Source of the DNA: an uncultured bacterium
GTDB taxonomy: Bacteria; Armatimonadota; Hebobacteria; CAYNSX01
NCBI GenBank assembly: GCA_964400165.1
Contig: CAYNSX010000003.1
Coordinates: forward strand, 1-62,519
Length of the DNA stretch: 62,519 bases
Direction: 5' to 3'
Shown here: positions 12,088 to 62,519 of the stretch, one piece after another
Position numbering within the stretch: the first letter of the stretch is position 1
Layout of the letters: each line of letters opens with the position of its first letter
Notes under the pieces: generated by a model
The model's input: the letters and a program-made list of their open reading frames with translations, nothing else
Databases searched by the model: none
What the model was told of the DNA's origin: nothing
Made by a program: the position numbers and the translations under genes

Positions 12088-12088
12088 C

Positions 12089-13054: not shown

Positions 13055-13069
13055 CGGCGGCGCACTCGC

Positions 13070-13975
13070 CTACTTCGCGTCGGGGCTGACGCGCTGGTAG
13101 ACCTCGATGGCGAAATCGAACGCGGACGCCACGGCCGGATCGGCCTTCTCGCCCGCGGCCAGCAGCCAGTCGGCGGCGGCCCGGTGCGGGGCGCTGCCAT
13201 AGAAACTCATCAGCGCCCGGCGGTCCTGCCAAAAGGCGATGAGATATTGCCTGGTGGTGTCGCCGACTTGCGCGCTCACCGCGTCGAGGTGCAGCAGCCC
13301 CGGGTCTTTCACCAGCCCTTGCAGGAACGGCTGGATTACCGAGTTGAGTTCGGCGAGGCCGGGGGGCGGTCCGGCAGCGCTCATGCCGCCGCCACCGCCG
13401 CCCATCTTGATTTGCAGTTTGGCGATGGTCATCACCGGGTTGGTGGCGAGCGGAATGCGGAACTGGTCGGAGCCGACATAACTGGGCAGGCCGTCGGCGC
13501 CAATTTCAATGCCGCCGGAGACGCGCTGGTATTGCTGCACCGCGTGACCGATCTTGAGGCCCGAATCTTTGAGCGCCTTCTCGACGGTCGTGTGCGCGGC
13601 GCCCTTCTCGTAGGCCTCGAGCGCGGCCTCGCTCTCCCAAGTCGAGATGAGCAGAACATAGTAGGCGGAGGGCGGCAGTTGGCCAAGGATGCGCGCCTTC
13701 TCAAGATCGACCGTGATGCCGGTGAAGAGGTCGGCGCTCGAGCAGCCCTTCTGTGACTTGAGCGCATCGGCCGCCTGTTTGCCGAGGTCGCCGACGCGGC
13801 CGAGGTCCTGCGGGCCGCTCTCGGCGGTCAGCCACACCAGCACGACAATTGGCTGCTTCTTTTCGATGGGCACCGTCTGGTCGGGAATCTTGGCGCTGCT
13901 CACTGTGACACACAGCGCCGTCAGCGCCGCGGCAACCGCCGCGCGACCGACATGGTGCGTGCGCACTCGAATCAT
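13070..13975 (-). CDS. Putative secreted protein with two ABM/dimeric alpha-beta barrel-like domains
   Basis: Signal-peptide-like N-terminus; two monooxygenase-like segments, LISTWESEAALEAYEKGAAH and LIAFWQDRRALMSFYGSAPH, joined by a Gly-rich linker. Confidence 0.6.
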   Translation of the reverse strand: MIRVRTHHVGRAAVAAALTALCVTVSSAKIPDQTVPIEKKQPIVVLVWLTAESGPQDLGRVGDLGKQAADALKSQKGCSSADLFTGITVDLEKARILGQLPPSAYYVLLISTWESEAALEAYEKGAAHTTVEKALKDSGLKIGHAVQQYQRVSGGIEIGADGLPSYVGSDQFRIPLATNPVMTIAKLQIKMGGGGGGMSAAGPPPGLAELNSVIQPFLQGLVKDPGLLHLDAVSAQVGDTTRQYLIAFWQDRRALMSFYGSAPHRAAADWLLAAGEKADPAVASAFDFAIEVYQRVSPDAK

Positions 13976-14277
13976 CCCTGCACCTCCGCGAAGACGAATG
14001 TGACCAGCCCTTTGGCGAAGCCCATCAGGTTGGCGCCCGCCGCCTTGCCTTCCTCGGACACCATCGCCGCCTGCATCTCCTGCGCCGACTCGAAATACAG
14101 TTCCGCCATCCGATAATACGGCGCCGGGTGGCCGGTGGGCGTGCCGGTGAAGCGCGTCGTCTCCAGCCGCACCAGGCCGGGCATCAGCCGCGCCAGGGGC
14201 ACATGCGTCTCGGTGTACTGGCGGTCGAAGCCGGCGGGGTCGTCGGGGCGGGTGAAGAGGGCGACGAGTTTGACCAT
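13972..14277 (-). CDS. EthD-family reductase
   Basis: MVKLVALFTRPDDPAGFDRQYTETHVPLARLMPGL...YYRMAELYFES; 101 aa. Confidence 0.88.
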   Translation of the reverse strand: MVKLVALFTRPDDPAGFDRQYTETHVPLARLMPGLVRLETTRFTGTPTGHPAPYYRMAELYFESAQEMQAAMVSEEGKAAGANLMGFAKGLVTFVFAEVQG

Positions 14278-14352
14278 GCGCGTGCCTGTGGAGTTCGCCC
14301 TGCGTCCATCACTTCCTGTGGACGAGCCGCGCGGCAAACGATGGTGCGACAA

Positions 14353-16155: not shown

Positions 16156-16294
16156 AGAAATCTCCACGGCCACTATACTCCGACATGAGGCGGGGGCGAC
16201 TTGCGCTTGTGTCCCGCGCAGCAAGGGATTTCCCCGCGGCGTCGAATGAAGAGGCGACGCCCCGCCGACGGGGCGACGCCCTGGGAGGGTGGTC

Positions 16295-18142
16295 ATGCGT
16301 CGTGTTATCGCCTTGCTGGTCTTCGCCGTCGTTGCGCGGGTGGTGGTCGCCGCGCCGGCGCCGAACCCGTTCATCTACACCGTGCGCCCGCTGGCGCCGA
16401 ACACGCACCTGTTGAGTGTCACCATCGAGGTGCCCGATGTGCGTGGCGACACGCTCGAATTCGCCATGCCGGCGTGGACGCCCGGCGCGTATGACATTCA
16501 GGATTTCGGCCGCAATGTCGAGGGCTTCGCCGCGTATGACGGCCGCGGACACACCATCCCCTCCCGGCGTCTCGACAAGCAGACTTGGCGCGTCTGGTCG
16601 CGCGGCGTGGACAAAGTCGTCGCCACCTACCGGGTGTATGTGAACCAGATGGGCATCATCACCAGTCAGTACAACGATGTGCACTGCTGGATCAACGGCG
16701 CGTCGGTATACCTGTATGTCGTCGGCCAGGTGCTGCACCCGATCGAATTGCGTCTTGAAGGGTTCCCGCCGGCCTGGCGGACCTCGACCGCGCTCGACCC
16801 CGGGCCCGGCGCGTGGAAGTTCACCGCGCCCGATTACGACTACCTGGTGGACTGCCCGATCGACATTGCGAACCACACCACGATGCAGTTCGTCGCCGAC
16901 GGCAAGCAGCACTATATCGTCACGCACTCCGACGCGAAGTATGACCCCGCCGAACTGACGAACTTGATCAAGCGCATCGTGGACCAGCAGATTGCCCTCT
17001 TCGGCAGCGCCCCGTATCCCCGCTATGTCTTTTTCATCCATGTCGGCGGCGGGGGTGGCGGCCTCGAGCACCTCTCCTCCACCGCGCTGGGCACCAATCC
17101 CGAATTCGCGCGCACGGAGGAGACCCGGCGGCGCTTCGGCGGGCTGGTGTCGCACGAGTTCTTCCACCTGTGGAATGTGAAGCGCATCCGGCCGCTGCCC
17201 CTGGGCCCGTTCGACTACTCGCGTGAAGTCTACACGCAGTACCTGTGGGAGAGCGAGGGCTGGACGAGTTACTTTGGCGACATCTCGCTGCGCCGCGCCG
17301 GCATCACCAGCAAGCAGCAGTATTACGAGGCGATGGCGCGGCTGATGCAGTCGTACGACGAGAACCCGGCGGCGAAGACCGTCTCGGCCGCCGACGCCTC
17401 GATGATGACTTGGGTGAACCCGGACAAACCGTTCTCGTCCATCTCGTATTACGGCAAGGGGCAACTGCTGGCGTTCTGCCTCGACCTCGAAATGCGCGGG
17501 CGGACACAAAACGCCAAGTCGCTCGACGACCTGATGCGCTACCTCTACGCCGAATACGCGGCGAAGGGTGTCGGCTATCCCGACGGCGCCGTGCAGAAAG
17601 CGGCGGAAGTGCTGACCGGCACCAGCTTCCAGGACTTCTTCGATACCTATGTCTTCGCGCCGACGCGCCCGCCGTATGACGACTTCCTCAAGCATGCCGG
17701 CCTGCGCCTCGACATCCGTTCGTCGGAGACCGGGCCGACGCTCGGCATTCGCACCGGCGCCGGTGGCGGCGGGGGTGGTGGATTCGCGGCAGCGGCCGCG
17801 GCGGCGGCCGCAGCCGCAACAGCAGCGGCGAGCGTGGACTTGGTGACAGTGCAGTCGTGCCTGCCAGGCGGCGCCGGCGACAAGGCCGGCCTCGACCAGG
17901 GCGACATTCTGGTGGCGATGGATGGCCGGCGGCTGCGCGCCTCGACGCTTGACCAGACGCTGCGCGACTACTTCGCCGCCGGGCAGGAAGTGACGCTGAC
18001 GGTGCTGCGCGGCGACCGCCTGCTGTCCGTGAAGGCGACGCTGGACGCCAACAAGGCGTCGCAGTACGCGCTCGTGGAGATCGAGAGCCCGACCGAGTTG
18101 CAGGTGCGCATCCGCGACACTTACCTCGGCATCGCGCAGTAA
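16295..18142 (+). CDS. M61 glycyl aminopeptidase-family metallopeptidase with a C-terminal PDZ domain
   Basis: Signal peptide; MPAWTPGAY, GGGLEH, SHEFFHLWNVKRIRP (HExxH), EGWTSY, YYGKG; PDZ GLDQGDILVAMDG; GGGAGG SD before ATG 16295. Confidence 0.92.
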   Translation: MRRVIALLVFAVVARVVVAAPAPNPFIYTVRPLAPNTHLLSVTIEVPDVRGDTLEFAMPAWTPGAYDIQDFGRNVEGFAAYDGRGHTIPSRRLDKQTWRVWSRGVDKVVATYRVYVNQMGIITSQYNDVHCWINGASVYLYVVGQVLHPIELRLEGFPPAWRTSTALDPGPGAWKFTAPDYDYLVDCPIDIANHTTMQFVADGKQHYIVTHSDAKYDPAELTNLIKRIVDQQIALFGSAPYPRYVFFIHVGGGGGGLEHLSSTALGTNPEFARTEETRRRFGGLVSHEFFHLWNVKRIRPLPLGPFDYSREVYTQYLWESEGWTSYFGDISLRRAGITSKQQYYEAMARLMQSYDENPAAKTVSAADASMMTWVNPDKPFSSISYYGKGQLLAFCLDLEMRGRTQNAKSLDDLMRYLYAEYAAKGVGYPDGAVQKAAEVLTGTSFQDFFDTYVFAPTRPPYDDFLKHAGLRLDIRSSETGPTLGIRTGAGGGGGGGFAAAAAAAAAAATAAASVDLVTVQSCLPGGAGDKAGLDQGDILVAMDGRRLRASTLDQTLRDYFAAGQEVTLTVLRGDRLLSVKATLDANKASQYALVEIESPTELQVRIRDTYLGIAQ

Positions 18143-49505: not shown

Positions 49506-51186
49506 TACGCCCGTCGCTCTCCAGCAAGCGGCGCACCCACGCCTCCTCGTCGGCGCGGGTGCTCACTTCGCTGTCGAGTTTCGCCGCACGCAACGCGCGC
49601 AGCGCCTCGCCCAGGCGCGGGCCGCGTTCGATGCCGAGGCGCTGCAAATCGTCGCCGGTCAGTTCCGGCTTCACATGCCGCCACACGCGCAAGTACCGTT
49701 CCGCTGTAGGCCGCGCAGTCTCATTGGTCATAGCGCCCGCCAGCAGCACCACTTCCGGCGGCAGGCGGTCGACGCGCGCTGCGATTTCGCTCGGGCGCTT
49801 GTCCGCGGTCAACAACACGGAGACCTCATCTACCTGTGAGAGCGCCTCGAACACCGCCCGCGTCTCGCGTTCCAGTCCCCAGCCCGAGCCGAGGGCCGCC
49901 CGCTTCTCCGGTGGCAATCCCGCGACCAGCGCCGCGAGGCGAAAGCGCACCACATTCACTTCCGCCATCGCCTCCGACGCCTCCGCGGCGCGCAGCCAAC
50001 TGACGGGCTCCGCGCCGCCCGCCCATCCCACTGCCTGCCACACCCCGAGGTCATCGAGCCGCTCGACGACAGTCGCGCCGCCCTCTCCCAGCACGCGCAG
50101 AACAGCGGCGCCGAGGCGCTCGCCGGACAGCGTCGCCAGCGCCCCGCGTGCGATGGCGTCCTTCGCCTGCGCCTCGGTTTCGGCGTCCATCCGAAAGCCG
50201 AGGCGGACTTCCAATTGCACGGCGCGGAAGATGCGGGTCGGGTCGTCATCGAAACTGGCCCCGTGCAGGATGCGAATGGTGCGCGCCGCCAAGTCGGCGG
50301 CGCCGCCGAACGGGTCGGCGATGGCGCCGAGGCCGTCGGGCGCTAAACGCGCCGCCATTGCGTTGATGGAGAAGTCGCGCCGGCGCAGGTCTTCGTCCAG
50401 CGCCGCCGGTTCGACGACCGGCAGCGCGCCGGGCCGCGGGTAGCGTTCACGCCGCGCCGTCGCCAGGTCGATTTCGAGCGCGCCCGCTGAATTGGTGAGA
50501 GTGACTGTCACGGTGCCGAACGCCTCGTGAATGCGTCGCGGTGTGCCCGACGCAGCCAGCCGCTCGGCGACCGCCAACGCATCGCCCTCGATCACGCAGT
50601 CCAGTTCCGCGGGCGCGCGGCCGAGCAACAGGTCGCGCACCGGCCCGCCCACCAGATGCGCCGGCATCCCGAGCGCGGCTGCGGCGTCGGCGACCTGGCG
50701 CAGCGCTTCGCGCTGCGCCTCGGTGAGCAAAGCCGCGGCGCCGTTCAGCGACTGTGCCGATTGGGCTGGTGCAGGCGCCCGATGCGTGGCCAAATACGAA
50801 TCGAGCAGCAGCGCCGCCGCCACCGCGTGTTCGCGTTCGCGCCGCTCATCGCCCGACACGCCGACTGCCGCCAGTTGCCGCGTCGCCTCCTGGCTGGTGT
50901 GGCGCTCGTCCCACAGGTCCACCGGCAGCCCGGCGATGCGCTCCAACCCCTTGGCGAACGCCGCAATCGACTCCGCTTGCTTCGTCCGGGTGCCGTCCTT
51001 CATAAGCGGCACACCCACCACAATCCGCTCGGCGCCGCGCTCGCGGGCCAGCGCCGCCACCTCCTCGAAGTCCTCGCGCCCGCCGCGGCGCGTGATCGTG
51101 AAGAGCGGCTGCGCCATCGCCGCCGGGCCGTCGCAGGCGGCGAGCCCGAGGTAGCGGTCGCCGACATCCACGGCGAGCACCTTCAT
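49498..51186 (-). CDS. ruvX: In-frame fusion: YqgF/RuvX RNase H-fold nuclease + class II CCA/A-adding tRNA nucleotidyltransferase (562 aa)
   Basis: ATG 51186 overlaps the MBL stop; YqgF motifs LAVDVGDRYLGLA, IVVGVP, WDERHTS; about 20-aa A/P/Q/S linker with no stop; NTase motifs LVGGPVRD, DLATARRERY..PGALP, DLRRRDFSINAMA, DDPTRIFRA. Confidence 0.88.
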   Translation of the reverse strand: MKVLAVDVGDRYLGLAACDGPAAMAQPLFTITRRGGREDFEEVAALARERGAERIVVGVPLMKDGTRTKQAESIAAFAKGLERIAGLPVDLWDERHTSQEATRQLAAVGVSGDERREREHAVAAALLLDSYLATHRAPAPAQSAQSLNGAAALLTEAQREALRQVADAAAALGMPAHLVGGPVRDLLLGRAPAELDCVIEGDALAVAERLAASGTPRRIHEAFGTVTVTLTNSAGALEIDLATARRERYPRPGALPVVEPAALDEDLRRRDFSINAMAARLAPDGLGAIADPFGGAADLAARTIRILHGASFDDDPTRIFRAVQLEVRLGFRMDAETEAQAKDAIARGALATLSGERLGAAVLRVLGEGGATVVERLDDLGVWQAVGWAGGAEPVSWLRAAEASEAMAEVNVVRFRLAALVAGLPPEKRAALGSGWGLERETRAVFEALSQVDEVSVLLTADKRPSEIAARVDRLPPEVVLLAGAMTNETARPTAERYLRVWRHVKPELTGDDLQRLGIERGPRLGEALRALRAAKLDSEVSTRADEEAWVRRLLESDGRNG

Positions 51187-52016
51187 GCCGCCGTCCGCCG
51201 GCGCTGCTTCACGGGCTCGCGCGCCGCGACATCGAACACCATCCCGTCCCGCGCCGCGGTGACGGGCAGCCCGAGCCGCTCGCTCATCTGCGCGGCAAGC
51301 AGCGACGGCTTGGCGCGCCAGACGGTCAGGCCGAAGTGTGTTAGGACGGCGGCCTCGGGCCGCACTGCGCGCAAAATCTCCTCCGCTTCCGGGATCGCCA
51401 AGTGCTGGATGTGGTCGCGCGGCTCGAGCAGGACGACATTGATGACCAGCACCGCGCACCCGCGGTACTGGTCGGCGAGTCCGTCGAACGCCGCCGTGTC
51501 GGTGAGCAGCCCGACGGTCCCGTCGCGCGTGTGAAATCGCACACCGTAAGTCTCGACGCCGTGTTTGTGCGCGGCCGTCGTGCTGAAGCGCAGCGCGCCG
51601 AGCGCATAGTCGGACGCCGCTTCCAGCGTCACGACTTGCGCCGGGTGCTCGCGCAAGTAGTGCAGCACCGCGCCGTCGGGCGCCAGCGCGTCGCCCGGAC
51701 AGAAGAGCGCCCCGCGCTTGCGCGAGCCGCCAAGTGTCATCGCCTCGATGAGCGCATTGACATCGGCGGAGTGGTCGAGGTGCTGGTGCGTGAGCAGGAT
51801 GCCGTCGAGCAGCGTCGGGTCGAGGCGCCGCCGGACGGCATGCACCAGCGCACCCGGGCCCGGGTCGATGCTCAATCGTTGACCTTCGAGTTCCGCCCAC
51901 AGGCCGGCGGTGGCGAGGTGCTGATAGGCGAGCATAAAGCGGGCGCCGCCGGTTCCAAGGAAAACCAGGCGGTTGGCGGACGGCGTGGGCGGCGGTTGGT
52001 CGGACAGGGAACCCAT
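51183..52016 (-). CDS. Metallo-beta-lactamase-fold hydrolase (RNase Z/PhnP/YycJ-like)
   Basis: FLGTGG, IDPGPG, THQHLDH (HxHxDH), HKH, LTDT, HLAIPEA, LTHFG. Confidence 0.88.
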   Translation of the reverse strand: MGSLSDQPPPTPSANRLVFLGTGGARFMLAYQHLATAGLWAELEGQRLSIDPGPGALVHAVRRRLDPTLLDGILLTHQHLDHSADVNALIEAMTLGGSRKRGALFCPGDALAPDGAVLHYLREHPAQVVTLEAASDYALGALRFSTTAAHKHGVETYGVRFHTRDGTVGLLTDTAAFDGLADQYRGCAVLVINVVLLEPRDHIQHLAIPEAEEILRAVRPEAAVLTHFGLTVWRAKPSLLAAQMSERLGLPVTAARDGMVFDVAAREPVKQRRRTAA

Positions 52017-52060
52017 CGGGCGGCCTGCGCGTCAGAGGGAGTGACCGGCGCCCGGTCGCG

Positions 52061-52089
52061 TTGACCCGTCGCCCCGGCGCACCTATGAT
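52061..52089 (+). promoter_or_regulatory. Putative sigma70 promoter for the tlpA-iscS pair
   Basis: TTGACC-N17-TATGAT in the divergent intergenic region. Confidence 0.65.
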
Positions 52090-52140
52090 ACCCGACGGAC
52101 GCGCGCCGAACGGGCGCAGCGTGCCTCGCGGAAGGACGAA

Positions 52141-52728
52141 ATGGCAGACGAACAGCCGCAAATCCCCGCCCCGCGCACCACCGGCCCGATGACCTTCTTG
52201 TGGGTGGTGTTTGCGGTCGTCGGCCTCGGCCTCGTCGGCTATTACGGCTTCCGCCCGAGCGCCGGCAGCGGTGGCAAGCCGGTTCCCCGGCAGACCGCGC
52301 CGGACTTCACGCTGCCGGCGGCGGACGGCTCGACGGTCACGCTCGCCACATTCAAGGGCAAGCCGGTGTTCATCAATTTCTGGGCGACTTGGTGCGGGCC
52401 GTGCCTGCAGGAACTGCCGATGCTGGCGAAGATGCAGCAGGCGCACAAAGGCGACATGCAATTCCTCTTCATCTCCATCGACAACAATTGGGATGTGGTG
52501 AACCGGTATTTGAAAGCATCCAAGTTGCAAATCCCCGTCGTGCTCGACAAGGGCTCCAAAGTGGCGATGGCCTTCGGCGCCAACGCCTGGCCGACCACCA
52601 TCACGCTCGACAAGGATTTGGGCATCATCCGCAAAGTCGAGGGGTCGCTCGACGAGACGCTTGCCAAAGAAATCGTCGATGAAGCGCTCGGCACGACGCC
52701 CACGGATTCCTCCACCGCCCCGCGGTGA
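52141..52728 (+). CDS. TlpA/ResA-family membrane-anchored thiol-disulfide oxidoreductase
   Basis: N-terminal TM; APDFTL, NFWATWCGPC, AWPTT (cis-Pro). Confidence 0.92.
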   Translation: MADEQPQIPAPRTTGPMTFLWVVFAVVGLGLVGYYGFRPSAGSGGKPVPRQTAPDFTLPAADGSTVTLATFKGKPVFINFWATWCGPCLQELPMLAKMQQAHKGDMQFLFISIDNNWDVVNRYLKASKLQIPVVLDKGSKVAMAFGANAWPTTITLDKDLGIIRKVEGSLDETLAKEIVDEALGTTPTDSSTAPR

Positions 52729-53882
52729 CAGACCCGCTCTACCTCGACCACGCTGCCACCACCCCGCTCGACCCGCGTGTCGCCGCTGTCATGGCGGGCG
52801 TCATCGAGTCCGCGTTCGGCAACCCGTCCAGTCTGCACACCTGGGGCCGCGCCGCGAAGGCGTTGCGCGAAACAGCGCGTGCACAAGTCGCCGCGTTGCT
52901 CAACGCCGACCCCGAAGAGGTGTACTTCACCGCCAGCGGCTCCGAATCGTGCGCGCTCGCTATCCGTGGCATCGCGGAAGCGAATGCGCGCCGCGGCCGT
53001 CAACTCATCAGCACCCCGATCGAACACCACGCCGTCTTGCACACGCACCAGGCGCTCGAACGCGACGGCTGGCGCGTCACCTACCTGCCGGTGGACCGCT
53101 TCGGCCGCGTCGCTCCCGAACAACTGGCCGCGGCGCTGACCGACGACACCGCTCTCGTGTCCGTAATGCACGCCAATAATGAAATCGGCACGGTGCAGCC
53201 CATCGTGGAACTCGGCGCGCTGTGCCGCGCCCGCGGCGTACTTTTCTTCACGGATGCGGTGCAGACCGTCGGCCATCTGCCGGTGGATGTGCGGGCGCTG
53301 CCAGTCGACGCGGTCGCTTGCGCCGGCCACAAGTTTTATGGCCCGAAGGGGGGCGCCGGGCTGTGGGTGCGACGCGGTGTCCGCTGCGCGCCGCTGTTCC
53401 ACGGCGGCGGGCACGAACACGGGCTGCGCTCGGGCACGGAGAATGTGCCTGCCATCGCCGGCCTCGGCGCCGCCGCCGACATCGCGCGCACCGAGATGAC
53501 CGCTGATGCGGCGCGCCTGCTGCCGCTCCGCGACCGCCTGACTGCCGGCCTGTTGCGCAGCGTGCCGGGCACGCATCTGAACGGACACCCGACCGAGCGG
53601 CTTGCCAACAATGTGAATGTCTCATTCGAAGGTGTGGACGCCGAGTCGCTGCTCATCGCGCTCGACCTCGAAGGCATCGCCGCGTCCTCGGGGTCTGCAT
53701 GCACTTCGGGGTCGCTCGAACCGAGCCATGTGCTGCTCGCTTGCGGACAAGAGCGGGCGCTGGCGCGCGGATCGCTGCGGCTGACGCTTGGGCGCGTGAC
53801 GGCCGCCACCGACATCGACCGCGTCCTCGAGGTCGTCCCGCGACTGGTGGCGCGCGTCCGACGGATGCCGGCGCGCGTCTAG
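52725..53882 (+). CDS. iscS: Cysteine desulfurase (IscS/NifS class I)
   Basis: YLDHAATTP, FGNPSS, ANNEIG, HKFYGPKG (PLP Lys), RSGTEN, SSGSACTSG (catalytic Cys). Confidence 0.92.
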   Translation: MTDPLYLDHAATTPLDPRVAAVMAGVIESAFGNPSSLHTWGRAAKALRETARAQVAALLNADPEEVYFTASGSESCALAIRGIAEANARRGRQLISTPIEHHAVLHTHQALERDGWRVTYLPVDRFGRVAPEQLAAALTDDTALVSVMHANNEIGTVQPIVELGALCRARGVLFFTDAVQTVGHLPVDVRALPVDAVACAGHKFYGPKGGAGLWVRRGVRCAPLFHGGGHEHGLRSGTENVPAIAGLGAAADIARTEMTADAARLLPLRDRLTAGLLRSVPGTHLNGHPTERLANNVNVSFEGVDAESLLIALDLEGIAASSGSACTSGSLEPSHVLLACGQERALARGSLRLTLGRVTAATDIDRVLEVVPRLVARVRRMPARV

Positions 53883-56791
53883 GGGCCGGCGTCGGCGACG
53901 CCGACCGGCGGCTCCGCCAGCGCCTTCAGTGACTCCGCCACGCTGCGCAGCGCCACTGACTCCGCGGCGGACTCGGCCGCATCCCGCAAGTACCACCAGC
54001 AGCGCCGCTTGGCGTCGTCATCGGCGAACTTCTCGAAGAAGTGCGCGGCCGAGCCGGCGTAGAACAAACTCTTGAAGACATTGGCGGCGGCGAAGACCGT
54101 GCCGTCAATCTCCGGATCCTGATGCGCGGCGAGCAATTCGTCGATGGCGGCCGGGTCGAGGTCGGCTTCGGGCGAGTGCAGTAGCGTGGCGTAATCGATT
54201 TCGCGTGGGCCGAGCGTCGCCTGTTCGAAGTCCACGGCGTGGACGCCGTCGTCGTGGAACAGCAGATTGCGCGGGATGAACTCGTTGTGAATGAAGGTGC
54301 GCGGCGCTTGCGCCAGGATGTCGATCAGCGGCCCCGCCGCAGCAGTGAACTCGCCGAGCAGCGCGTCCTCCTCCCGCCCCTGGAAGCGCAGGACGCGGCG
54401 GGCGGCGATGCGGAGCGTGTCGCGGTAATACTGCGGCGTCAGGCGCTCCTTGTGCACCTTCTCGACTTCGCGGCTCAACTCCGAGAGGTGCGCGTTCGCC
54501 CGGCGATGCAGATCCACCAGCGCCGCCAGACACAAGTCCATCATGACGCGGCGCTCGGCGGGCGTCGCCTGCGCCAGGCGGTCCGACAGCGTGTCCTCGC
54601 CCAAGTCTTCGAGGAACAACAGCGACCGCTCGACGCCCTCAAGGCCGCCCAGCACTTTCGGCACCGGGGCGCTGAACCGCCCGAGTAATGTCAGAATGCC
54701 CTGCTCGCGGCGATAGCAGGCCGTCGAAAACTTGACCCGCTCTTCTTCGTATTGCTTGACCACCACGCCGACGGGCGGCTCATCGCCCCACCCCACCTGC
54801 AAGCGGAACAGCCGGTTGCGCGACGGCGTCGGCTCGATCGTCTGTTCGTAGACCAGCGGCTCCTGCCCTTTCTTGCGCCCGAGCGCCTGGCTCAATTCGT
54901 CGGGCGCGATGCCGAGGTCGCGGCACGCCTCGCGCGTGCGGACCACCAAATCGCGCGGCGCCGCCGCCAGCGACGCGGGCGTGCCGGGCAGCAGCGGATG
55001 CTCGCCGCCCCAGCGCCGCAGCGCGTCATCGAGGCGCGCCAAGCGCATCTTGATGTCGCGCTCCATCCGGTTGAGCGTCCCGCGCGCCTTCTCATAGTCC
55101 TCGCGTTGCACGGCATTGAAGGCCGCGGGCAGCCGCCGCCGCTCGATGGCGAGCAGGTCGAGCGCCTGTTCGTTCAGCCGGTAGGCCTCCTGCAAGCGGC
55201 GGTGGACATCGTTCGCCTGAATGGCGAAATCGGAGCGCCGCGCCTGCGTCTGGGCGGCGCGCAGCGCCTGTTGATGCGAGCGGCGCGCCAGCGACACCAG
55301 CCGCAGCTTCACATCGCCCAGCGTCTCGCGCAGGCCGGCGATGGCGTCGGCCTTGCTCTTCGGCACCCGCTCCCACAACTGGATGGCCTTGATCAGGTCG
55401 CCGCGGGCGACATACATCCGCCCCAGTTCCCATACCACCTGTTCGCGCAGCACCAGGTTGCGCAGCGGCACCGCCTCCCATTCGCGCAAGGCGGCGTCGA
55501 GGTTGCGCCGCTCGGCGTGAATCTTGCCGAGCAGCAGGCGCACCTCGAACTCGCCCAGCGCGCGCCACAGGAGCGATTCGCTCGCCATGTTGGTCAGGTC
55601 GGCGAGCGTCAGGTCGGTCTCACGCGCCGGCGCGTAGAGCGGCCGCCCCAGGACGCCGAGCGGCAGTCCCTGATACACCCAGATGCGGTCACTATCGTCG
55701 CCCGTGCCGAGGAAGTAGTAGACGCGCCGCGCCTTCGTCAGCCCCGCCCAGAACAGAAACGCCGCCATCACCACAACCCCGGTGATCCAGATGTCGTGGC
55801 TCAACAGCGACAGTCCCGCCAGCACCGAAAACGCCAACCCGCCGCCCAGGAACAACACCAGCACTTGCTCGTCGGGCCAGCCCATCCACTGGAAGTGATG
55901 ATGCACCGGTGCGACGAAGAACGGACGGAAGACCTCGCCAGTGCGGTGCCGCAGCACCTGCACCACCCGCCGCCCAGCGCGCACCATCCCCGTCTGAATG
56001 ATCACCGACAGCGTGTCGACGACGAACATCCCGCCGATGAGCACGAGCAGCCATTCAGTTTTGGTGAGCAGCGCCAGTATGGCCAGCGTCGCGCCCGCCC
56101 CCATGGCGCCGGTGTCACCCATCAGCAGCCGGGCGGGTGGCCGGTTGTAGAAGAGGAATCCGAGCGTGGCGCCGGCGAGACTGACGCCGATGGGCACAGA
56201 CAGTGACCCGGAATGGACGCCCGTCAGGACGGCGTAGGTGAGCGCGGCGAGCACCAGCAGACTGCCCGCCAGCCCATCCACGCCGTCGGTCAGGTTGACC
56301 GCGTTCGCCGTCCCGATCAGCACGAGCGCGGCGAAAATCACATAGCCATAACCGAGCGCGACTTCGACATCGAACACTGGGATATACACTGTCCCGACAT
56401 CGAAACGCAGGTACAGCAGCAGCCCGATCATCAGGCCGAGGACGGCCTGGCCGAGGAGTTTCTCGCGCTCCTGCAGGCCCTGTCCGCGCGTCTTGCCGAG
56501 ATCGTCGAGCAGCCCGAGCGCGCCGAACCCGCCAGCGACCAAGATCACCAGCAACGCGGTGGCGCCGTCGATGTCATCCCGTTGAAACGCCAGCACGATG
56601 CCGAGGCCCACCGCCAGCCCGGCGATGATGCCGACGCCGCCGCCGAGCGGCTTCTTGCGTCCGGTGCGCCCGGGGCGGTCCTTCCCCTCTTTCACTTCAC
56701 CGGACCGAAACGCACCCCAGCGAGTCAGGACGCCGCGGCACACCAGCAGCGAAACGAGTCCCGACCCGAGGAAGGCGAGGAACGCCGGCAC
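53879..56791 (-). CDS. MraY-like phospho-MurNAc-pentapeptide transferase fused to TPR/coiled-coil and an APH/AmgK-like kinase-fold domain (970 aa)
   Basis: N-terminal about 330 aa: GLLDD, KLLGQ, NAVNLTDGVDGLA, MGDTG, APVHHHF; TPR-like ELGRMYVARGDLIKAIQLW; C-terminal LEDLG, HNEFIPRNLL, VDFEQATLGP..IDYATLL; no internal stop. Confidence 0.82.
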   Translation of the reverse strand: MPAFLAFLGSGLVSLLVCRGVLTRWGAFRSGEVKEGKDRPGRTGRKKPLGGGVGIIAGLAVGLGIVLAFQRDDIDGATALLVILVAGGFGALGLLDDLGKTRGQGLQEREKLLGQAVLGLMIGLLLYLRFDVGTVYIPVFDVEVALGYGYVIFAALVLIGTANAVNLTDGVDGLAGSLLVLAALTYAVLTGVHSGSLSVPIGVSLAGATLGFLFYNRPPARLLMGDTGAMGAGATLAILALLTKTEWLLVLIGGMFVVDTLSVIIQTGMVRAGRRVVQVLRHRTGEVFRPFFVAPVHHHFQWMGWPDEQVLVLFLGGGLAFSVLAGLSLLSHDIWITGVVVMAAFLFWAGLTKARRVYYFLGTGDDSDRIWVYQGLPLGVLGRPLYAPARETDLTLADLTNMASESLLWRALGEFEVRLLLGKIHAERRNLDAALREWEAVPLRNLVLREQVVWELGRMYVARGDLIKAIQLWERVPKSKADAIAGLRETLGDVKLRLVSLARRSHQQALRAAQTQARRSDFAIQANDVHRRLQEAYRLNEQALDLLAIERRRLPAAFNAVQREDYEKARGTLNRMERDIKMRLARLDDALRRWGGEHPLLPGTPASLAAAPRDLVVRTREACRDLGIAPDELSQALGRKKGQEPLVYEQTIEPTPSRNRLFRLQVGWGDEPPVGVVVKQYEEERVKFSTACYRREQGILTLLGRFSAPVPKVLGGLEGVERSLLFLEDLGEDTLSDRLAQATPAERRVMMDLCLAALVDLHRRANAHLSELSREVEKVHKERLTPQYYRDTLRIAARRVLRFQGREEDALLGEFTAAAGPLIDILAQAPRTFIHNEFIPRNLLFHDDGVHAVDFEQATLGPREIDYATLLHSPEADLDPAAIDELLAAHQDPEIDGTVFAAANVFKSLFYAGSAAHFFEKFADDDAKRRCWWYLRDAAESAAESVALRSVAESLKALAEPPVGVADAGP

Positions 56792-56794
56792 CGG

Positions 56795-57244
56795 CTAAGT
56801 CACCCGGAAGATGAGCTTGTAGGTGCCGATGCAGATTTCATCGCGGTCTTGCAACGGCTCCTCTTTGATGAGCGGCTCGTCATTGAGGAGGGTGCCGTTG
56901 GTGCTGCCCTCATCGGCAATGAAGTAGCGGTCGCCCTCGCGGCGGATGCGGGCGTGCTGGCGCGAGACGGCGTTGTCGGGCAGGACGATGTGACAGCCCC
57001 GCCGCCGCCCAACGATCGTCAGGTCGCCGAGGTCCACGATGTTGTCCACCTGCTCGCCCTGCGGGTCGATGAGCCAGACACGCGCGGTCCCCGGCGGGGC
57101 GTGCGTCTCGGCGCTCAAGAAGCGGAGCAGCATCGTCTCCTCTTCGTCGGGCGGGGGCGGCGGGTCGCCGAGCGCCAGGCCGCACTGATGGCAAAAGCGG
57201 CTGTCGTCGGGGTTGTCGGAACCGCATCGGGGGCAGGGGCGCAT
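56795..57244 (-). CDS. Zinc-ribbon + FHA domain protein
   Basis: CPRCG...CHQCG; FHA VGRRRGC, VSRQHARI, GSTNGT; stop lies 3 bp before the MraY-fusion start. Confidence 0.9.
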   Translation of the reverse strand: MRPCPRCGSDNPDDSRFCHQCGLALGDPPPPPDEEETMLLRFLSAETHAPPGTARVWLIDPQGEQVDNIVDLGDLTIVGRRRGCHIVLPDNAVSRQHARIRREGDRYFIADEGSTNGTLLNDEPLIKEEPLQDRDEICIGTYKLIFRVT

Positions 57245-57399
57245 ACTTTCGTTCCTCGTCTCCCAGCAAGCGCGATTGTGGAATGCGGAACGGCCGGTGT
57301 CAACGCAACCTCCCCGAGCGGCCCGAGAGACCCAGTCGGATCCGCCCCATCTCTTGTCCACTAGGAATGCGAACGCTGTAAGTTGTATGCTGCTCTCAG

Positions 57400-58629
57400 A
57401 TGATCCACCGTCTGGAAATCGAGGGATTTAAGAGTTTCGGGACACCAGGAGTCAGTCTCCAATTCACTGACTTGAACTTTCTGGTTGGCGCGAACTCGTC
57501 CGGCAAATCGAATCTCATCTCCGCGCTCCGGTTTGTACAAGACTGCGTCAACCAGAATGTTGAATACGCAGTCAACGAGCTCGGTGGTGGCGCAGAAGTA
57601 AGGAATAAGATTCTTCGTCAGCGGACCGATCCAAAGCCCGTTCGATTCAAGATCATTGGCACCCCAAGCGGGACCTTAGGGCGCAGGTCGCGTTCTGTCC
57701 CCTTTGCTATCGGCCGCTGGCATTCGATGTCGTTCACATATGAAGTCAAACTTGATCTTCGATCAGAAGACGGCATCCCAGTGATCGAATCCGAAGTTTT
57801 CACCGCGGAGTCGAAAGATAAGAACACGAGCCGGAAGCAAGAGTATCTACTCGCGCGGGACGAAAAGTTTATTGAGATCAAAGATCCAACGCGACCGGAC
57901 TACTTTCCTGGGAAGATAGCCATTGATGAGCCTGAAAGCACAAGGCTCGCTCTTGGGAAAGGATTCTTTGGCACACCACCTACACTTTTGCGCAGAGAAA
58001 TTGAGAGTTGGCGATTCTACAATGTCAGCCCGTCTGTCGCGAGACAGCCATCGAAGGAAACGGGCGATGTGGAATTGGGACCAGCTGGAGAAAATCTGGC
58101 GGTAATTCTGCATCGAATTGAGAAAGAGAATTCCGTGCATCTCCAGGCCATCTTGCACGGTTTGAGAGGTGTAGTCCCGGGTTTCAAAGGGATTCGAACA
58201 AGACAACTGCCCGTGGAAACCAAATGGGCGTTTCAAGTTCTTGAAGATAAGATCCGTGGGGCAATCAATCCATCATCTGTTTCTGATGGCACAATCAGGC
58301 TCCTGACACTCCTAGTGATCACCACCTGGTCGTCGCGCTATTCAGCTTTGGTGGCAGTCGAAGAACCAGAAAACGGGCTGCATCCCCATCTCTATGATCA
58401 TGTTGTCAATCTTTTCAGGGAAGCAAGCCAACATAGGCAATTCATAGTGGCCACTCATAATCCCTCTTTTCTCGACCAATTATCTCCAGAAGAAGTATTC
58501 CTGTGCGACAAGCTCGAAGGTTTCACCCAGATTCGCGTTGCATCAAGCCTCAAAATGATTCAGAGTTTTAAGAAGCATTTTCAGTTGGGTGAACTGTGGA
58601 TCCAGGGGGTCCTCGGGGCCAACCCATGA
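57400..58629 (+). CDS. ABC-type AAA ATPase (AAA_15/AAA_21, OLD/AriA-like)
   Basis: IEGFKSF, Walker A GANSSGKS, signature VSDGT, Walker B/D-loop VEEPENGLHP, H-loop ATHNP; AT-richer (29/60 GC in line 58501). Confidence 0.9.
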   Translation: MIHRLEIEGFKSFGTPGVSLQFTDLNFLVGANSSGKSNLISALRFVQDCVNQNVEYAVNELGGGAEVRNKILRQRTDPKPVRFKIIGTPSGTLGRRSRSVPFAIGRWHSMSFTYEVKLDLRSEDGIPVIESEVFTAESKDKNTSRKQEYLLARDEKFIEIKDPTRPDYFPGKIAIDEPESTRLALGKGFFGTPPTLLRREIESWRFYNVSPSVARQPSKETGDVELGPAGENLAVILHRIEKENSVHLQAILHGLRGVVPGFKGIRTRQLPVETKWAFQVLEDKIRGAINPSSVSDGTIRLLTLLVITTWSSRYSALVAVEEPENGLHPHLYDHVVNLFREASQHRQFIVATHNPSFLDQLSPEEVFLCDKLEGFTQIRVASSLKMIQSFKKHFQLGELWIQGVLGANP

Positions 58630-59198
58630 CGATCGGCGTAGGCGTGGAAGGTCCGTCTGACAGGGATTTCTGGAACAAAGTGCTCCATAAACACTTCCGG
58701 CGATTTCAATTTGACATTCGCAACATGAAGAGTCGCGCAAAGTTAATCGAAAGCACTCCGACACTGTTGGAATCCTTCAAGAATCTTCATTACCGTGCTG
58801 GGTTCATTCTGGTCGACAGAAACGACAGTCGATGTCCAACCGAGGTGCTGGGAGAGTTTGACGCGCATGTTCAGCTGGAGGCCAAACGGCCGATCAATCA
58901 GAGATATTTGCACATCTGCATTGCGATTAGAGAATTGGAGGCTTGGTTTTTGGCCGACGAAGCTGGAATCAATGCCGTGTTGACGAAATCGGAATACGGC
59001 GCGTCGAGCGAGACGGGCTTGGTCAGCGCGGAAGGAATGCTCAAAACTCTTTGGCAGAAGAATTTCGGCAAGGGAGTCGCAATCAACAAGATTGAATTCG
59101 CGAGAATGATGGCGCCAAAGTTTGATCCTGGTTGCGCTTTGAACCGTTCGAGCTCATTCAAGCACTTCTGGGGCAGACTCAGAGCTGCATGCAGATAG
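58626..59198 (+). CDS. DUF4276/TOPRIM-like nuclease partner
   Basis: VGVEGPSD (TOPRIM ExxxD), ILVDRND, RELEAWFLAD; ATG overlaps the ATPase stop (ATGA); AT-richer. Confidence 0.75.
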   Translation: MTIGVGVEGPSDRDFWNKVLHKHFRRFQFDIRNMKSRAKLIESTPTLLESFKNLHYRAGFILVDRNDSRCPTEVLGEFDAHVQLEAKRPINQRYLHICIAIRELEAWFLADEAGINAVLTKSEYGASSETGLVSAEGMLKTLWQKNFGKGVAINKIEFARMMAPKFDPGCALNRSSSFKHFWGRLRAACR

Positions 59199-59279
59199 AG
59201 CGCTTAATGCCGGGTCGCCCTGGGTGCCCACATGGTAACAGCGCAGGAACAGCGGGCCCGCCCGCCGAACTCTGCGCCC

Positions 59280-59444
59280 ATGGCCGACGCGCAGACGACG
59301 GAACCCTCGGAACCGAAGGAGCGCACCTTTTGCTTCCGCTGCTCGATTGTCAGCAGCCAGCGGCTGCTGCTGCGCGCCGAATTCGAGGGCGAACTGGTCT
59401 GGATTTGCGTCACTTGTCTGCGGCAGATGCTGCAGTCGCGCTGA
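59280..59444 (+). CDS. Small C4 zinc-finger-like protein (54 aa)
   Basis: CFRC...WICVTC; high-GC host-like codons; start could be 59232. Confidence 0.55.
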   Translation: MADAQTTEPSEPKERTFCFRCSIVSSQRLLLRAEFEGELVWICVTCLRQMLQSR

Positions 59445-59476
59445 ACGCGCGCTGCGTCGCAACACACACGATTTCC

Positions 59477-59505
59477 TTGCCGCCCTGCGCGGGCGGTGCT
59501 ATGCT
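59477..59505 (+). promoter_or_regulatory. Putative extended -10 sigma70 promoter upstream of the GNAT gene
   Basis: TTGCCG-N17-TATGCT with TG at the extended -10 position. Confidence 0.55.
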
Positions 59506-59688
59506 CCGCGTGAGAGAGGCCGGCATGAGTGAGCCCCGCAGTCCGCAGCGCTTTGGCCGCCCGCGACCGCGGCGCCCTGACCCCCGCGGCAGCCAGCGCC
59601 CCCGCCTGTAATCCCCGCGGTCCCGTGCTCGGCTCTGTGTTTCTGAACACTTTCTGCCGTCTGCCTGCTGCCCACCGCCGGAGTCCCT

Positions 59689-62519
59689 ATGGCCATCCGC
59701 ATCCGCGACTATCACCCTGACGACGCTGGCGGCATCGCCGACCTGTGGCGCGCCAGTGATGCGGCTTGGCCCGGCGGGCTGACCGGCGGCGCGCCCGTCT
59801 CGGCCGACAAGGTGCGCGAGCGCGAAGGCCGCGAAACATATGAGGCCTTCATGGTCGCCGAAGACGATCACCAGATTGTCGGCTATTGGAAAGTGAAGGC
59901 CTCGCCCGACCGCAAGGCGCTCATCGGCGATTTCATCAATGTCCACCCGGCCTATCACGGCAAAGGCATCGGCAAAGCGTTTCAGATGAAGTTTCTCGAA
60001 ATCGCCCTCGCCCGCGGGTTCGAGCGCATGGAACTCGGCACCTGGGCAGGCAACCTGAAGGCGGTGCCGCTCTACAAACGCACCGGCTTCTTTTGGATTC
60101 CCGAGTCCAGCGTTGAGATGCGCAGTTACCTGCCGCAAGTGCTGCGGCTCTCGGGCGCGCAGGGATTCTTCAACCGGCACCCGTGGTATGACACTTTCGA
60201 CCGCTCCATCGAGGTCAAGCCCGACGACGAGAAGTGGGAGGGCGTGCCCGCTTTCCGCTATCGCTGGCATGCTGACGGCGAGGTCATCGAAGTCATCGCC
60301 GACCCGCGCTCCGACGGCCTGACCGCATACGAGGACAGCCGCATCGCCATCGCCTGCGTGCTCGGCAAAGAGGAACTCACCGGCGGCGTCGCACAGCGAT
60401 TCGAAGTGCGCTTGCGCAATGCGGGCCCGGCGCCGGTCCCCGTCACGCTGTTCATCGAGGGGGATGAAGGCGCGACCTTCAGCGCCGTCGAATCGTTCAC
60501 GCTCGGCGACACGCGGACACTCTCGTACGACATCACGCCGAATCCGGAGGCGCCCGCCACGCCGCCCGGCCGCCGCGGCTATGCGCTGACCACCCGCGCG
60601 GTCATCGGCGATCAGGCGCTCACCTTGCGCACCGGGTTCACCATTCAGCAGCCCGTCGACATCGAGTGGGCGCTGCCGCCGGCGCCGGCGCGTCCCGGCA
60701 CAACCGTGGAACGCGACCTGGTCATTCTGAATCACCTCGACGAGCCGCTTACTGGTGTCGTGGAGCTGCCCTCGTCGGAGTCGGTTCACCTCTCCCCGAC
60801 GCACACCAACATCACGCTGCCGCCGCGCGGCCGGGTGAGTGTGCGGGTCACGCTGCGCGCCGAGGCGCCGGGCGGCTATGTGCTGCGGCCGCGGCTGCGC
60901 TGGCAGCGGCCGGCGGGCGAGGTCTCCACGCGGCGCTTCCCGCTCCCATTCCACTCTTCGCTGCCCGACCAGCCGACGGTCTCGCTCGACGAAGAGCGCG
61001 CCTCGCTGCGCAATGACTGGCTGCACCTCGAGAATCACCACGCCGGCGGGCGCTGGGAACGCTCCGGCTTCCGGCTCGAGGACGCCGTGACCGGCGAAGC
61101 GGCGCTCTTCTTCCCCTTCCCCGCCGCCGGGCCGCCGTTCGACGATCCGGAAAACCTGCCGGCGCCGGTCGTCCGCGTCGGCACGGACGACCGCACCGCG
61201 TGGGCCGAGTTCGACATCGCCGGTCGCAGCCGACCCGAGACACGGCTCGTCTGCCGCTACACCCTCGGCGCCGAGCCGTTCGTGCGCATTGATTGCACCG
61301 TCCTCGGCGCCGCGCCGGGTGAAGAAGTGCTGGTGCACCAGACGCTGCGGCGCGGGTGGGAATCCGCGCCGGGGCAGCGGGCGCTGTGGGCGCCGCTGCG
61401 CGAGGGCGTCGTCTCGCGGCGCGGCTCGCCCATCGTGGACTTCCCCGGCGGTGAGAGCGACTTGCCGCGCGAGCCGGATGCCTACGCGCAAGGATGGTTC
61501 GCATGGGGCGACCGGCGGGGCACGGTACTGGCCTGGCTTTTCGATGACGCCACCGAGTGCACGCCTGGGCGCGTGACGCTGCGCACGCCCGACCACCCGG
61601 AAGCGACCGTCGCGCGCACTCGCCCGCTCCACCTGGCGCTCTGCCCTGGCGACCACCGCGTGATCGCCCGCCTCCACGAACGCCTCTATGCATTGGGCGC
61701 TGCGCCCGACCCCGCGCCCGTCTTCGAAGTGACAACCGGCATGCCGGTGCCCGCCACCGCCACCAGCGAATGGCGGTTCCCGGTCGTCGTGCACAACCGC
61801 CGCGAGCAGCCGCTCGACGGGACGCTCGCCTTCACTCCGCCCGACGGCCTGCAATGCGATCCGCCGGTGGTGGCGCTGGCAGGCGTGACGCGCACCGCGC
61901 CGCACGAGACGGCGCTGCATGTCGAGGGGACTGGCGCGCCGGGCGTCGTGCTCTTGCCGGCGAGCGTCACCACTCCGCTGTTCACCGAAGACCTGGAACT
62001 CCCCGTCTGGCGAACGGGCGATGCTGCGCATCCGGTTCGCATTTCACACGACGGCGACTCGCATTGGCTCGATAGCGGCCGGGCGCGCGTCCGCGTGTCG
62101 CCCGGCTTTCAGGCGAGCGTCACCGCGTTTGAGGCGCTTGGAGCCAGTCACCTGGACACCGCATATCCCACGGGCCGCGCCTGGGGCTGGCGCAACCCGT
62201 GGTTCGGCGGCATCGCCGTGAACCTCGGCGAATGGGGCGATTGGCCGCTGCAAAACCAGGCATTCGACGCCGAAGAAGTCACGCGGCGCGGCGCGCAGGG
62301 CATCCCGTGGGGCGGGCTGTGTCTGGGAGCGGAGCTGGAGCATAAGTCCTGCCGCGGCCTGCGCGTCGAAGTGGAGTACTTGCTTCCGGCCGGCGGCGAG
62401 ACCTTGGCGCTCGTCTACCGGCTCATCAACCTGACAGATGGGCATTGGCCGGTGGTCGGGCCCATTGTGGAATGCTTCCCCGCCGTTGGCGGCACGATTG
62501 AAGGCACGCGCGCGTATGT
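59689..62519 (+). CDS. Very large GNAT-family N-acetyltransferase with Ig-like C-terminal domains (partial, runs off the right edge)
   Basis: GGAG SD and ATG 59689; I read the frame with no stop for 943 codons; VHPAYHGKGIGK acetyl-CoA motif A, TWAGNLKAVPLYKRTGFFW; absent from the ORF track because it has no stop in the window. Confidence 0.88.
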   Translation, partial: MAIRIRDYHPDDAGGIADLWRASDAAWPGGLTGGAPVSADKVREREGRETYEAFMVAEDDHQIVGYWKVKASPDRKALIGDFINVHPAYHGKGIGKAFQMKFLEIALARGFERMELGTWAGNLKAVPLYKRTGFFWIPESSVEMRSYLPQVLRLSGAQGFFNRHPWYDTFDRSIEVKPDDEKWEGVPAFRYRWHADGEVIEVIADPRSDGLTAYEDSRIAIACVLGKEELTGGVAQRFEVRLRNAGPAPVPVTLFIEGDEGATFSAVESFTLGDTRTLSYDITPNPEAPATPPGRRGYALTTRAVIGDQALTLRTGFTIQQPVDIEWALPPAPARPGTTVERDLVILNHLDEPLTGVVELPSSESVHLSPTHTNITLPPRGRVSVRVTLRAEAPGGYVLRPRLRWQRPAGEVSTRRFPLPFHSSLPDQPTVSLDEERASLRNDWLHLENHHAGGRWERSGFRLEDAVTGEAALFFPFPAAGPPFDDPENLPAPVVRVGTDDRTAWAEFDIAGRSRPETRLVCRYTLGAEPFVRIDCTVLGAAPGEEVLVHQTLRRGWESAPGQRALWAPLREGVVSRRGSPIVDFPGGESDLPREPDAYAQGWFAWGDRRGTVLAWLFDDATECTPGRVTLRTPDHPEATVARTRPLHLALCPGDHRVIARLHERLYALGAAPDPAPVFEVTTGMPVPATATSEWRFPVVVHNRREQPLDGTLAFTPPDGLQCDPPVVALAGVTRTAPHETALHVEGTGAPGVVLLPASVTTPLFTEDLELPVWRTGDAAHPVRISHDGDSHWLDSGRARVRVSPGFQASVTAFEALGASHLDTAYPTGRAWGWRNPWFGGIAVNLGEWGDWPLQNQAFDAEEVTRRGAQGIPWGGLCLGAELEHKSCRGLRVEVEYLLPAGGETLALVYRLINLTDGHWPVVGPIVECFPAVGGTIEGTRAY

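Follow-up and report, generated by a model that had tools for sequence, protein, structure and literature searches.

The window analysed here is a stretch of 62,519 nucleotides (positions 1 to 62519 of contig CAYNSX010000003.1) from an uncultured bacterium of the Armatimonadota. At positions 57400 to 59198 it carries two overlapping genes encoding an ABC-type ATPase (gene A) and a small TOPRIM/DUF4276 partner (gene B). The pair has been inserted by horizontal acquisition into the guanine-plus-cytosine (GC)-rich genome of a sediment bacterium. Judged by its profile matches, it is a rather divergent, solitary member of HEC-01, a known candidate defence family, and it probably represents a self-contained two-gene defence module in which an ABC ATPase would gate a minimal OLD-type TOPRIM nuclease. 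HEC-01, the "Hma-embedded candidate 01" of PADLOC, was described as an ABC ATPase together with a TOPRIM protein embedded in Hma systems (Payne et al., bioRxiv 10.1101/2024.01.29.577857).

Insertion of the gene pair

The acquisition is visible as an empty site in a related sequence. L086, a 297-kb metagenome contig reached via an 81%-identical homologue of the NifS-type cysteine desulfurase encoded near the pair, displays the same gene order without an ATPase/DUF4276 pair. Two blastn blocks flank the site: window positions 50001-57308 correspond to L086 positions 7277-14591 with 79.5% identity, and 59252-62519 to 14604-17903 with 82.5% identity. The gap between these blocks is 12 bp in L086 versus 1,943 bp in the window. 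The more distant L087 (NifS 73% identical) also has no pair beside its FHA gene, and its right flank is not syntenic. Because of the empty site in L086 and the foreign composition, gain in the lineage of the window is the parsimonious reading. Furthermore, the island is not an assembly artefact or chimera: four independent metagenome runs belonging to two studies yielded contigs that cross both junctions, and none of the contigs bypasses it. The inserted segment is organised as follows.

57309-59251 (no strand): inserted segment of 1,943 bp, borders accurate to about ±8 bp, without counterpart in the syntenic L086
57309-57399 (+): island-borne leader 5' of gene A, 91 bp, GC 0.60, presumed promoter and ribosome-binding site region, without counterpart in L086
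57400-58629 (+): gene A, ABC-type ATPase (AAA_21, HEC-01A-like), ATG start, 409 aa
58626-58629 (+): ATGA overlap, shared by the stop codon of A and the start codon of B, translational coupling
58626-59198 (+): gene B, predicted DUF4276 / OLD-type TOPRIM nuclease (HEC-01B-like), ATG start, TAG at 59196-59198, 190 aa

The composition of the two genes is foreign to the host. The A/B pair has a GC content of 0.501, compared with a mean of 0.678 (standard deviation 0.021, minimum 0.606) for all other 1.8-kb windows of the 62.5-kb sequence, corresponding to z = -8.3. Likewise, the GC content at third codon positions (GC3) is 0.53 in A and 0.60 in B, versus 0.80-0.88 in the neighbouring genes. The initial annotation, made from the letters alone, had described two ATGA-coupled genes, AT-richer than the host and lying between housekeeping-type genes. 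Its letter counts are exact (29/60 GC for line 58501, 49/60 for line 60841), the overlap is where it was placed, and the neighbours are of the kind proposed: the genes for NifS, the glycosyltransferase-4/APH fusion and the FHA protein come before the pair, and those for a small CxxC protein and a large GNAT protein after it. Horizontal acquisition, then argued from composition, is now also seen in the empty site. The extent given, 57400-59198, holds for the gene pair, the inserted DNA being slightly larger. In the automatic list of open reading frames (ORFs), gene B began at GTG 58596, which over-extends it; the conserved start is ATG 58626.

The borders and surroundings were inspected for traces of mobility. 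At the borders, flanking repeats, whether direct or inverted, did not rise above chance, and no convincing target duplication or terminal inverted repeat was detected; no integrase, transposase or recombinase was encoded among the neighbours (window flanks and L086 comparison), and no tRNA genes were found in the window. An Rfam scan returned no families at the locus and hence no retron noncoding RNA. Searching with B by tblastn gave no match in 72,556 plasmids or in 50,697 phage genomes, B had no match in PHROG, and a comparison with 2.9 million viral contigs (IMG/VR) gave one weak, partial match (29%).

The ATPase and its TOPRIM partner

In Pfam, protein A matches AAA_21 from end to end (E 2e-30), with additional N-terminal matches to SMC_N/AAA_15. 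Its best match in PADLOC is the HEC-01A model PDLC04178 (3.4e-57, 192 bits, residues 2-405 of 409), and the seven best matches in PADLOC-DB are all HEC-01A. The AlphaFold2 model of A (pLDDT, its predicted local distance difference test score, 88.8) displays an ABC head with a beta-rich insert at residues ~81-174 and no coiled coil. Using Foldseek, this model matched an SMC head, GajA and PtuA, an effector of Septu and retrons, at ~1e-13. The ATPase motifs are given below, with invariance assessed across 60 homologues.

57487-57513 (+): Walker A / P-loop GANSSGKSN (aa 30-38); G30, N32, G35, K36 and N38 invariant
58276-58299 (+): ABC signature region SVSDGTIR (aa 293-300), core SDGT 295-298; S295, D296, G297, T298 and R300 invariant
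58342-58377 (+): Walker B / D-loop SALVAVEEPENG (aa 315-326), Walker B core LVAVEEPE (aa 317-324); E321, E322, P323, E324, N325 and G326 invariant
58447-58467 (+): H-loop VATHNPS (aa 350-356), ATH 351-353; T352 and H353 invariant

A reading of A as the "AbiEii toxin" of a type IV toxin-antitoxin system was rejected, as this name is only the Pfam label of AAA_21 and A contains no AbiEii domain.

Protein B matches the Pfam family DUF4276 (PF14103) with 48.1 bits against a cut-off of 30.2 (E 2.1e-12), its residues 7-185 aligning to profile positions 1-191 of 192. The best PADLOC match is the HEC-01B model PDLC04202 (2.2e-15, 55 bits, residues 1-187 of 190), and 15 of the 15 matches in PADLOC-DB are HEC-01 models. 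Since the B family profile gave chance matches only when compared with PDB sequences, a fold search was needed. The AlphaFold2 model of B (pLDDT 95.3) consists of a TOPRIM fold followed by a helical domain, and its top Foldseek match in the PDB is 6nk8_A, the C-terminal catalytic region of BpOLD, the OLD nuclease of Burkholderia pseudomallei (probability 1.00, template modelling (TM) score 0.52/0.50). The second is the AriB chain 8ux9_A of the PARIS complex (E 1.7e-2, TM 0.33), and among viral proteins an RloB-like TOPRIM protein matches best (TM 0.56). Three motifs of B are conserved in the family.

58644-58661 (+): TOPRIM glutamate motif VEGPSD (aa 7-12; E8, D12); E8 in 58/59 and D12 in 59/59
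58812-58826 (+): DxD-type motif VDRND (aa 63-67; D64, N66); D64 in 59/59
58932-58958 (+): ELEAWFLAD (aa 103-111; E105, W107, D111), start of the helical part; E105 and W107 in 59/59, D111 in 58/59

The conserved acidic residues probably correspond to the metal ligands of BpOLD, in which two Mg ions are held by E400, E404, D455, D457, T506 and E508 (PMC6755086). Based on motif spacing and predicted secondary structure, the pairs are E8/E400, D12/E404, D64/D455, N66/D457 and E105/E508, and the +4 spacing from E8 to D12 is that of BpOLD. In the model, E8 and D12 are found where strand 1 ends and helix 1 begins; D64-x-N66 closes strand 3, and E105 opens the helix that comes after strand 4. Position 66 is the variable one: among the 59 family members it is D in 52, N in 4 (this copy included), H in 2 and E in 1, and the three other members with N66 are intact. 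As D457 of BpOLD binds water ligands only and the single D457A change had no visible effect (PMC6755086), this copy of B is, from the residue pairing and the model, probably active despite N66.

Relatives and known defence systems

Homologues of A and B number in the hundreds at 45-61% identity, the nearest being ~60% identical and none closer. A profile search of 1.84 billion cluster representatives returned 760 clusters at E <=1e-3, of which 107 reached <=1e-10 and 42 reached <=1e-30. The best 150 relatives of B are 39-269 aa long; since all are <=269 aa, the B domain is not fused to an ATPase in them. In species-representative genomes, 41 close loci were collected across about ten phyla, with representatives in Chloroflexota, Verrucomicrobiota, Spirochaetia, Latescibacterota, Bacteroidota, Phycisphaerae, Nitrosomonas, Actinomycetota, Omnitrophota and Ignavibacteria. 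The adjacency of the two genes is obligate, as a homologue of A lies directly 5' of B in 41/41 of these, and a 4-bp ATGA or GTGA overlap is found in 7/7 encoding-contig loci checked. The genes have also co-evolved: the pairwise identities of A and B are correlated with r = 0.86, a value reached by 0 of 2,000 Mantel permutations. In 39/41 genomes the pair is AT-richer than its flanks, by a mean of 6.6 points, and in ~33/41 it is solitary among housekeeping genes. Six Chloroflexota species hold the pair at one site, between miaA and HpcH, and here the ratio of nonsynonymous to synonymous substitution rates (dN/dS) is 0.14-0.39 for both genes, reflecting purifying selection. Some of these same-site Chloroflexota loci display discordant identities (L019/L023, A 92% vs B 70%; L015/L046, A 92% vs B 80%), a hint that partners were exchanged by recombination or that the nuclease evolves faster.

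Other relatives are found beside defence genes. In five Verrucomicrobiota loci the pair lies directly 5' of jetA of Wadjet; L045 and L047 also encode JetB/DUF4194, and L040 encodes a JetC-like SbcC ATPase. These loci form a divergent branch of the family (B 34-40% identical), and the arrangement suggests that the pair was recruited there as a Wadjet accessory. In L011/L026 and L024, the pair lies 3' of an SNF2 (DrmD/HmaA-like) helicase gene, and in L011 the genes for a type III methyltransferase (Mod), a PD-(D/E)xK protein (PDDEXK_3) and a type III restriction enzyme (Res) come next. An anti-phage role is supported by this association of relatives with restriction clusters and Wadjet. The positions are as follows.

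L040:528-2500, L041:4461-6444, L044:7001-9045, L045:7001-9631 and L047:4417-7114: Wadjet-adjoining pairs
L011:3873-13336 (same region as L026) and L024:2903-7570: restriction-embedded pairs

The sequence features of HEC-01 are all found in the window, namely a HEC-01A profile match, a HEC-01B profile match and adjacency on one strand. Embedding in a Hma or restriction-type system is absent at this locus, yet this does not bar the assignment, because embedding was the route of discovery and not a calling rule. Further likenesses are the ABC head, which like the one described for HEC-01A has a beta-rich Insert 1 and lacks a coiled coil, the overlap of the two adjacent genes, and a TOPRIM partner with a predicted OLD-like metal site. 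In addition, the L011/L026 relative, 50% identical to the window pair, is embedded in a helicase/methylase/restriction cluster, the configuration in which the family was discovered. The window pair differs in being solitary among housekeeping genes and in having Asn at the second DxD position. As for function, a 2026 study reports that a HEC-01 from a cold seep protected E. coli B from one or more of the phages T7, T5 and T4, and it ranks HEC-01 among the commonest candidate types of cold-seep prokaryotes (PMC12881386). Moreover, the fused relative HEC-04 protected and needed both ATPase and TOPRIM residues (bioRxiv 10.1101/2024.01.29.577857).

Several better-described systems combine similar proteins. 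Mad4 of MADS, the methylation-associated defence system, is a DUF4276 protein, a TOPRIM member with a conserved Glu and DxD (PMC12065111), and the PARIS paper places MADS3-4 and AbiL among ABC-ATPase/TOPRIM systems (PMC11464382). The Mad3-Mad4 pair, an AAA_15/21 ABC ATPase with a DUF4276 TOPRIM protein, resembles the window pair (PMC12065111, PMC11464382), and A aligns over its full length to the PADLOC mad3 model (1.6e-22). Assignment to MADS was rejected: the MAD3 equivalog NF047739 scored 119.7 bits against a cut-off of 420, in the C-terminal half only, B had no Mad4 match in NCBIfam or PADLOC, and no methyltransferase or other mad genes were found within ±7 kb. AbiL (AbiLi with AbiLii) and RloA/RloB-type pairs likewise join an ABC ATPase to a small TOPRIM-like partner. 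Here, A matched AbiLi in PADLOC at 1.9e-30 with 104 bits, below the 192 bits of HEC-01A, and B matched neither AbiLii nor the RloB profiles.

Among class 2 OLD proteins (BpOLD, GajA), the modelled B is the counterpart of the entire catalytic C-terminal region of BpOLD, a TOPRIM plus a helical part with 198 aa in all (PMC6755086), and the head of A resembles GajA of Gabija (PMC10568477). Unlike Gabija, the pair has no UvrD-type helicase partner such as GajB. Sequence identity to the OLD match is only ~15%. Membership of OLD classes 1-3, which are single polypeptides, was rejected, as ATPase and nuclease are two separate ORFs in the window and the best 150 relatives include 0 fusions. PARIS resembles the pair in that its ABC ATPase is a separate protein, encoded ahead of a TOPRIM nuclease. 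Its ATPase complex detects a phage protein and then sets AriB free to cut tRNA (PMC11464382), and this is the best mechanistic analogy for the pair. In contrast to PARIS, however, the effector is DUF4276 and not DUF4435, B is about half the size of AriB, and A has no coiled-coil arms. DUF4435 scored 13.1 bits on B against a cut-off of 27, and no AriB model occurs among the PADLOC matches of B. Besides its match to a generic AAA_21-derived AriA model in PADLOC, A has a terminal match to PDLC02979, and its similarity to AriA chains in the PDB is restricted to residues 294-358 (E ~1e-3).

The pair is thus related to PARIS, AbiL and OLD and a member of none. The initial annotation had named these three as kin, and the relatedness stands while membership fails the profile and fusion tests. 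Its identification of an ABC ATPase with a TOPRIM/DUF4276 partner agrees with the Pfam matches and the structural match to 6nk8; the full ABC motif set that it mentioned is present (as GANSSGKSN, SDGT, LVAVEEPE and ATH), and so are the partner motifs VEGPSD, VDRND and ELEAWFLAD that it listed. The checks it suggested, PADLOC profiles and Foldseek against OLD and AriB, ranked HEC-01A and HEC-01B best and BpOLD ahead of AriB, respectively. Its proposal of a candidate anti-phage system has gained support from the HEC-01A and HEC-01B matches and from the restriction-cluster and Wadjet contexts. On the whole, its interpretation stands up. The pair falls into HEC-01, a candidate family that was on record before; this lowers the novelty, a caveat which the annotation itself had made.

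Proposed function, surroundings and meaning

In the proposed HEC-01-type defence module, A and B would be made together through translational coupling and then form a complex. The ATPase would both sense infection and gate the nuclease, and it would dimerise via its ATP sites. Upon an infection cue, ATP binding or hydrolysis by A would license the two-metal TOPRIM nuclease to cut nucleic acid, and this would stop phage replication either directly or by cell death or arrest. DNA may be slightly favoured over tRNA or other RNA as the substrate, since the modelled B equals the DNase core of BpOLD in size and fold; OLD and Gabija, on which the analogy is based, cleave DNA.

Several observations weigh against the defence module. 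The pair is solitary in the window, with no defence island and no mobile-element genes nearby, and this copy of B has Asn in place of the second Asp of DxD. No consensus promoter was recognised 5' of A in a promoter and terminator scan, which gave nothing useful 3' of B, and the runs carrying the sequence are DNA metagenomes only (sediment and freshwater sediment; two studies). Furthermore, 8/41 genomic copies look frameshifted, truncated or internally deleted, which argues that the module is dispensable. Gene A is broken in L025, L034 and L052, where B is apparently intact, and gene B in L038, L039, L048, L049 and L050; several of these copies come from long-read metagenome-assembled genomes, and some breaks may be sequencing errors. 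A HEC-01 representative in E. coli gave no protection against the panel of Payne et al. (bioRxiv 10.1101/2024.01.29.577857), so that proof at the family level amounts to one positive report, without mechanism. Finally, complex formation, ATP-gated activation, trigger, substrate and an abortive-infection outcome are proposed by analogy with PARIS, OLD, Gabija and HEC-04.

Some of these observations could also be explained by a selfish, toxin-antitoxin-like addiction cassette, in which a toxic nuclease B is checked by A and the cassette persists because its loss kills, with no anti-phage benefit. A solitary, coupled two-gene cassette that moves across phyla into housekeeping surroundings would suit such a lifestyle, as would the lack of a defence island around the window pair and the HEC-01 tested without protection. 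Yet three loci with broken A and apparently intact B, even allowing for sequencing errors, are hard to square with A as an essential antidote. The family is also embedded in or adjoins defence operons, one HEC-01 did protect, and no member was found on sequenced plasmids, where addiction modules thrive. Taken together, addiction is an unlikely explanation.

It could also be speculated that this copy is an inert passenger, acquired by chance, not expressed or active in its host and decaying. The missing promoter, the DNA-only runs, the D66N change and the disruption of about a fifth of the relatives would agree with this, and a GC content not shifted toward the host value fits a recent arrival. 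However, both frames are intact over 1.8 kb and retain every invariant residue of the family except at position 66, where three other intact members also have N66. In addition, the identical sequence occurs in four runs of two studies with no empty-site variant, making an inert passenger improbable.

A housekeeping role in nucleic-acid metabolism, either repair like that of RecF, SbcCD or OLD, or RNA maturation like that of the TOPRIM RNase M5, is very unlikely. While the head of A is like SMC/RecF-type heads, and six diverged Chloroflexota species keep the pair at one conserved site under purifying selection, the family is patchy over about ten phyla and missing from the nearest relatives of the window genome. 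Its composition is foreign in 39/41 genomes, the best profile matches are all defence models, and copies are frequently disrupted. Least credible of all is a bona fide PARIS, whose effector cuts tRNA upon sensing of an anti-restriction protein: the two share an architecture, AriB is the second PDB match of B, and A matches the PADLOC AriA model at 2e-29, but this model is a generic AAA_21 profile giving the same 1-304/304 match as Pfam, B has 190 aa versus the 35 kDa of AriB with a TM to AriB of 0.33 and no AriB/DUF4435 match, the model of A lacks coiled-coil arms, and phage and satellite sequences contain essentially no members of the family.

The HEC-01-type defence module thus remains the preferred reading. 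A broader proposal, which is rather doubtful, would regard solitary HEC-01-type pairs as autonomous, recombinase-free "minimal" defence cassettes that hop across phyla into intergenic spacers, with a DUF4276 substrate and activation logic unlike PARIS (tRNA) or OLD/Gabija (DNA). The route of such hops may be illegitimate or homology-facilitated recombination. The nuclease may have a new RNA target, or may be an ATP-gated DNase with a single canonical metal site, as hinted by the tolerated D66N/H/E variation.

The genes surrounding the island were selected as real by GC3 and Pfam matches.

52141-52728: redoxin
52725-53882: NifS-type cysteine desulfurase
53879-56791 (-): glycosyltransferase-4/APH fusion, 970 aa
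56795-57361 (-): zinc-ribbon/FHA protein, extent as ORF, ending at 56795
59232-59444 (+): ORF of a small CxxC...CxxC protein, 3' of the pair
from 59689: large protein with an N-terminal GNAT domain, 3' of the pair

The NifS-type protein has named relatives in Armatimonadota, Fervidibacter and Firmicutes that are <=57% identical. The 970-aa protein is unusual in that an MraY-like glycosyltransferase-4 membrane domain is fused to an APH-type kinase domain at its C-terminus. The fusion is kept in both L086 and L087, oriented like the adjoining FHA gene, and a scan of genome contigs with it found no relative. The FHA/zinc-ribbon gene probably encodes 149 aa from ATG 57244, as in L086 and L087, and not 188 aa from GTG 57361. 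With the 149-aa form, the divergent intergenic region is 155 bp, of which only the 91 bp beside gene A are island-borne. On the other side, the first 7 codons of the 70-aa ORF at 59232-59444 lie within the inserted DNA, and a search with this ORF gave matches from the same population only. The conserved CxxC...CxxC protein is the 54-aa form from ATG 59280, as called in L086, and has no Pfam family; its gene is a host gene outside the system.

Elsewhere in the window, two further regions display atypical composition. At 6566-7204 (-), GC drops to 0.55 over 478 bp between the genes for an enoyl-CoA hydratase and a pyridine-nucleotide oxidoreductase. The ORF here has sub-threshold matches to DUF4365 (E 7e-4, 20 bits vs 24.3) and to PADLOC PDC-M02A (E 9e-6), and may represent a second small gene, either acquired or decayed. 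The 1.6 kb at 14672-16289 have a GC content of 0.61 and no ORF with host-like GC3, while an overlapping 673-aa ORF at 14356-16374 (-) has no Pfam match; this may be another gene of atypical composition.

In general, the pair is real but ordinary, and a specialist would not be surprised by it; current thinking about bacterial immunity is unchanged by the finding. What it adds are exact insertion borders with an empty site, a list of conserved catalytic residues and a survey of genomic contexts. Its practical value is modest, as a clean HEC-01-type example, its predicted active sites intact, on a 1.9-kb fragment small enough for cloning. HEC-01 is abundant in environmental genomes, and its two published protection tests disagree. 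For this family, the comparative data, consisting of the pairing and co-evolution of the genes, the residues E8, D12, D64 and E105, the tolerated second DxD position and the solitary versus embedded or Wadjet-adjoining copies, provide a rational set of constructs and mutants.

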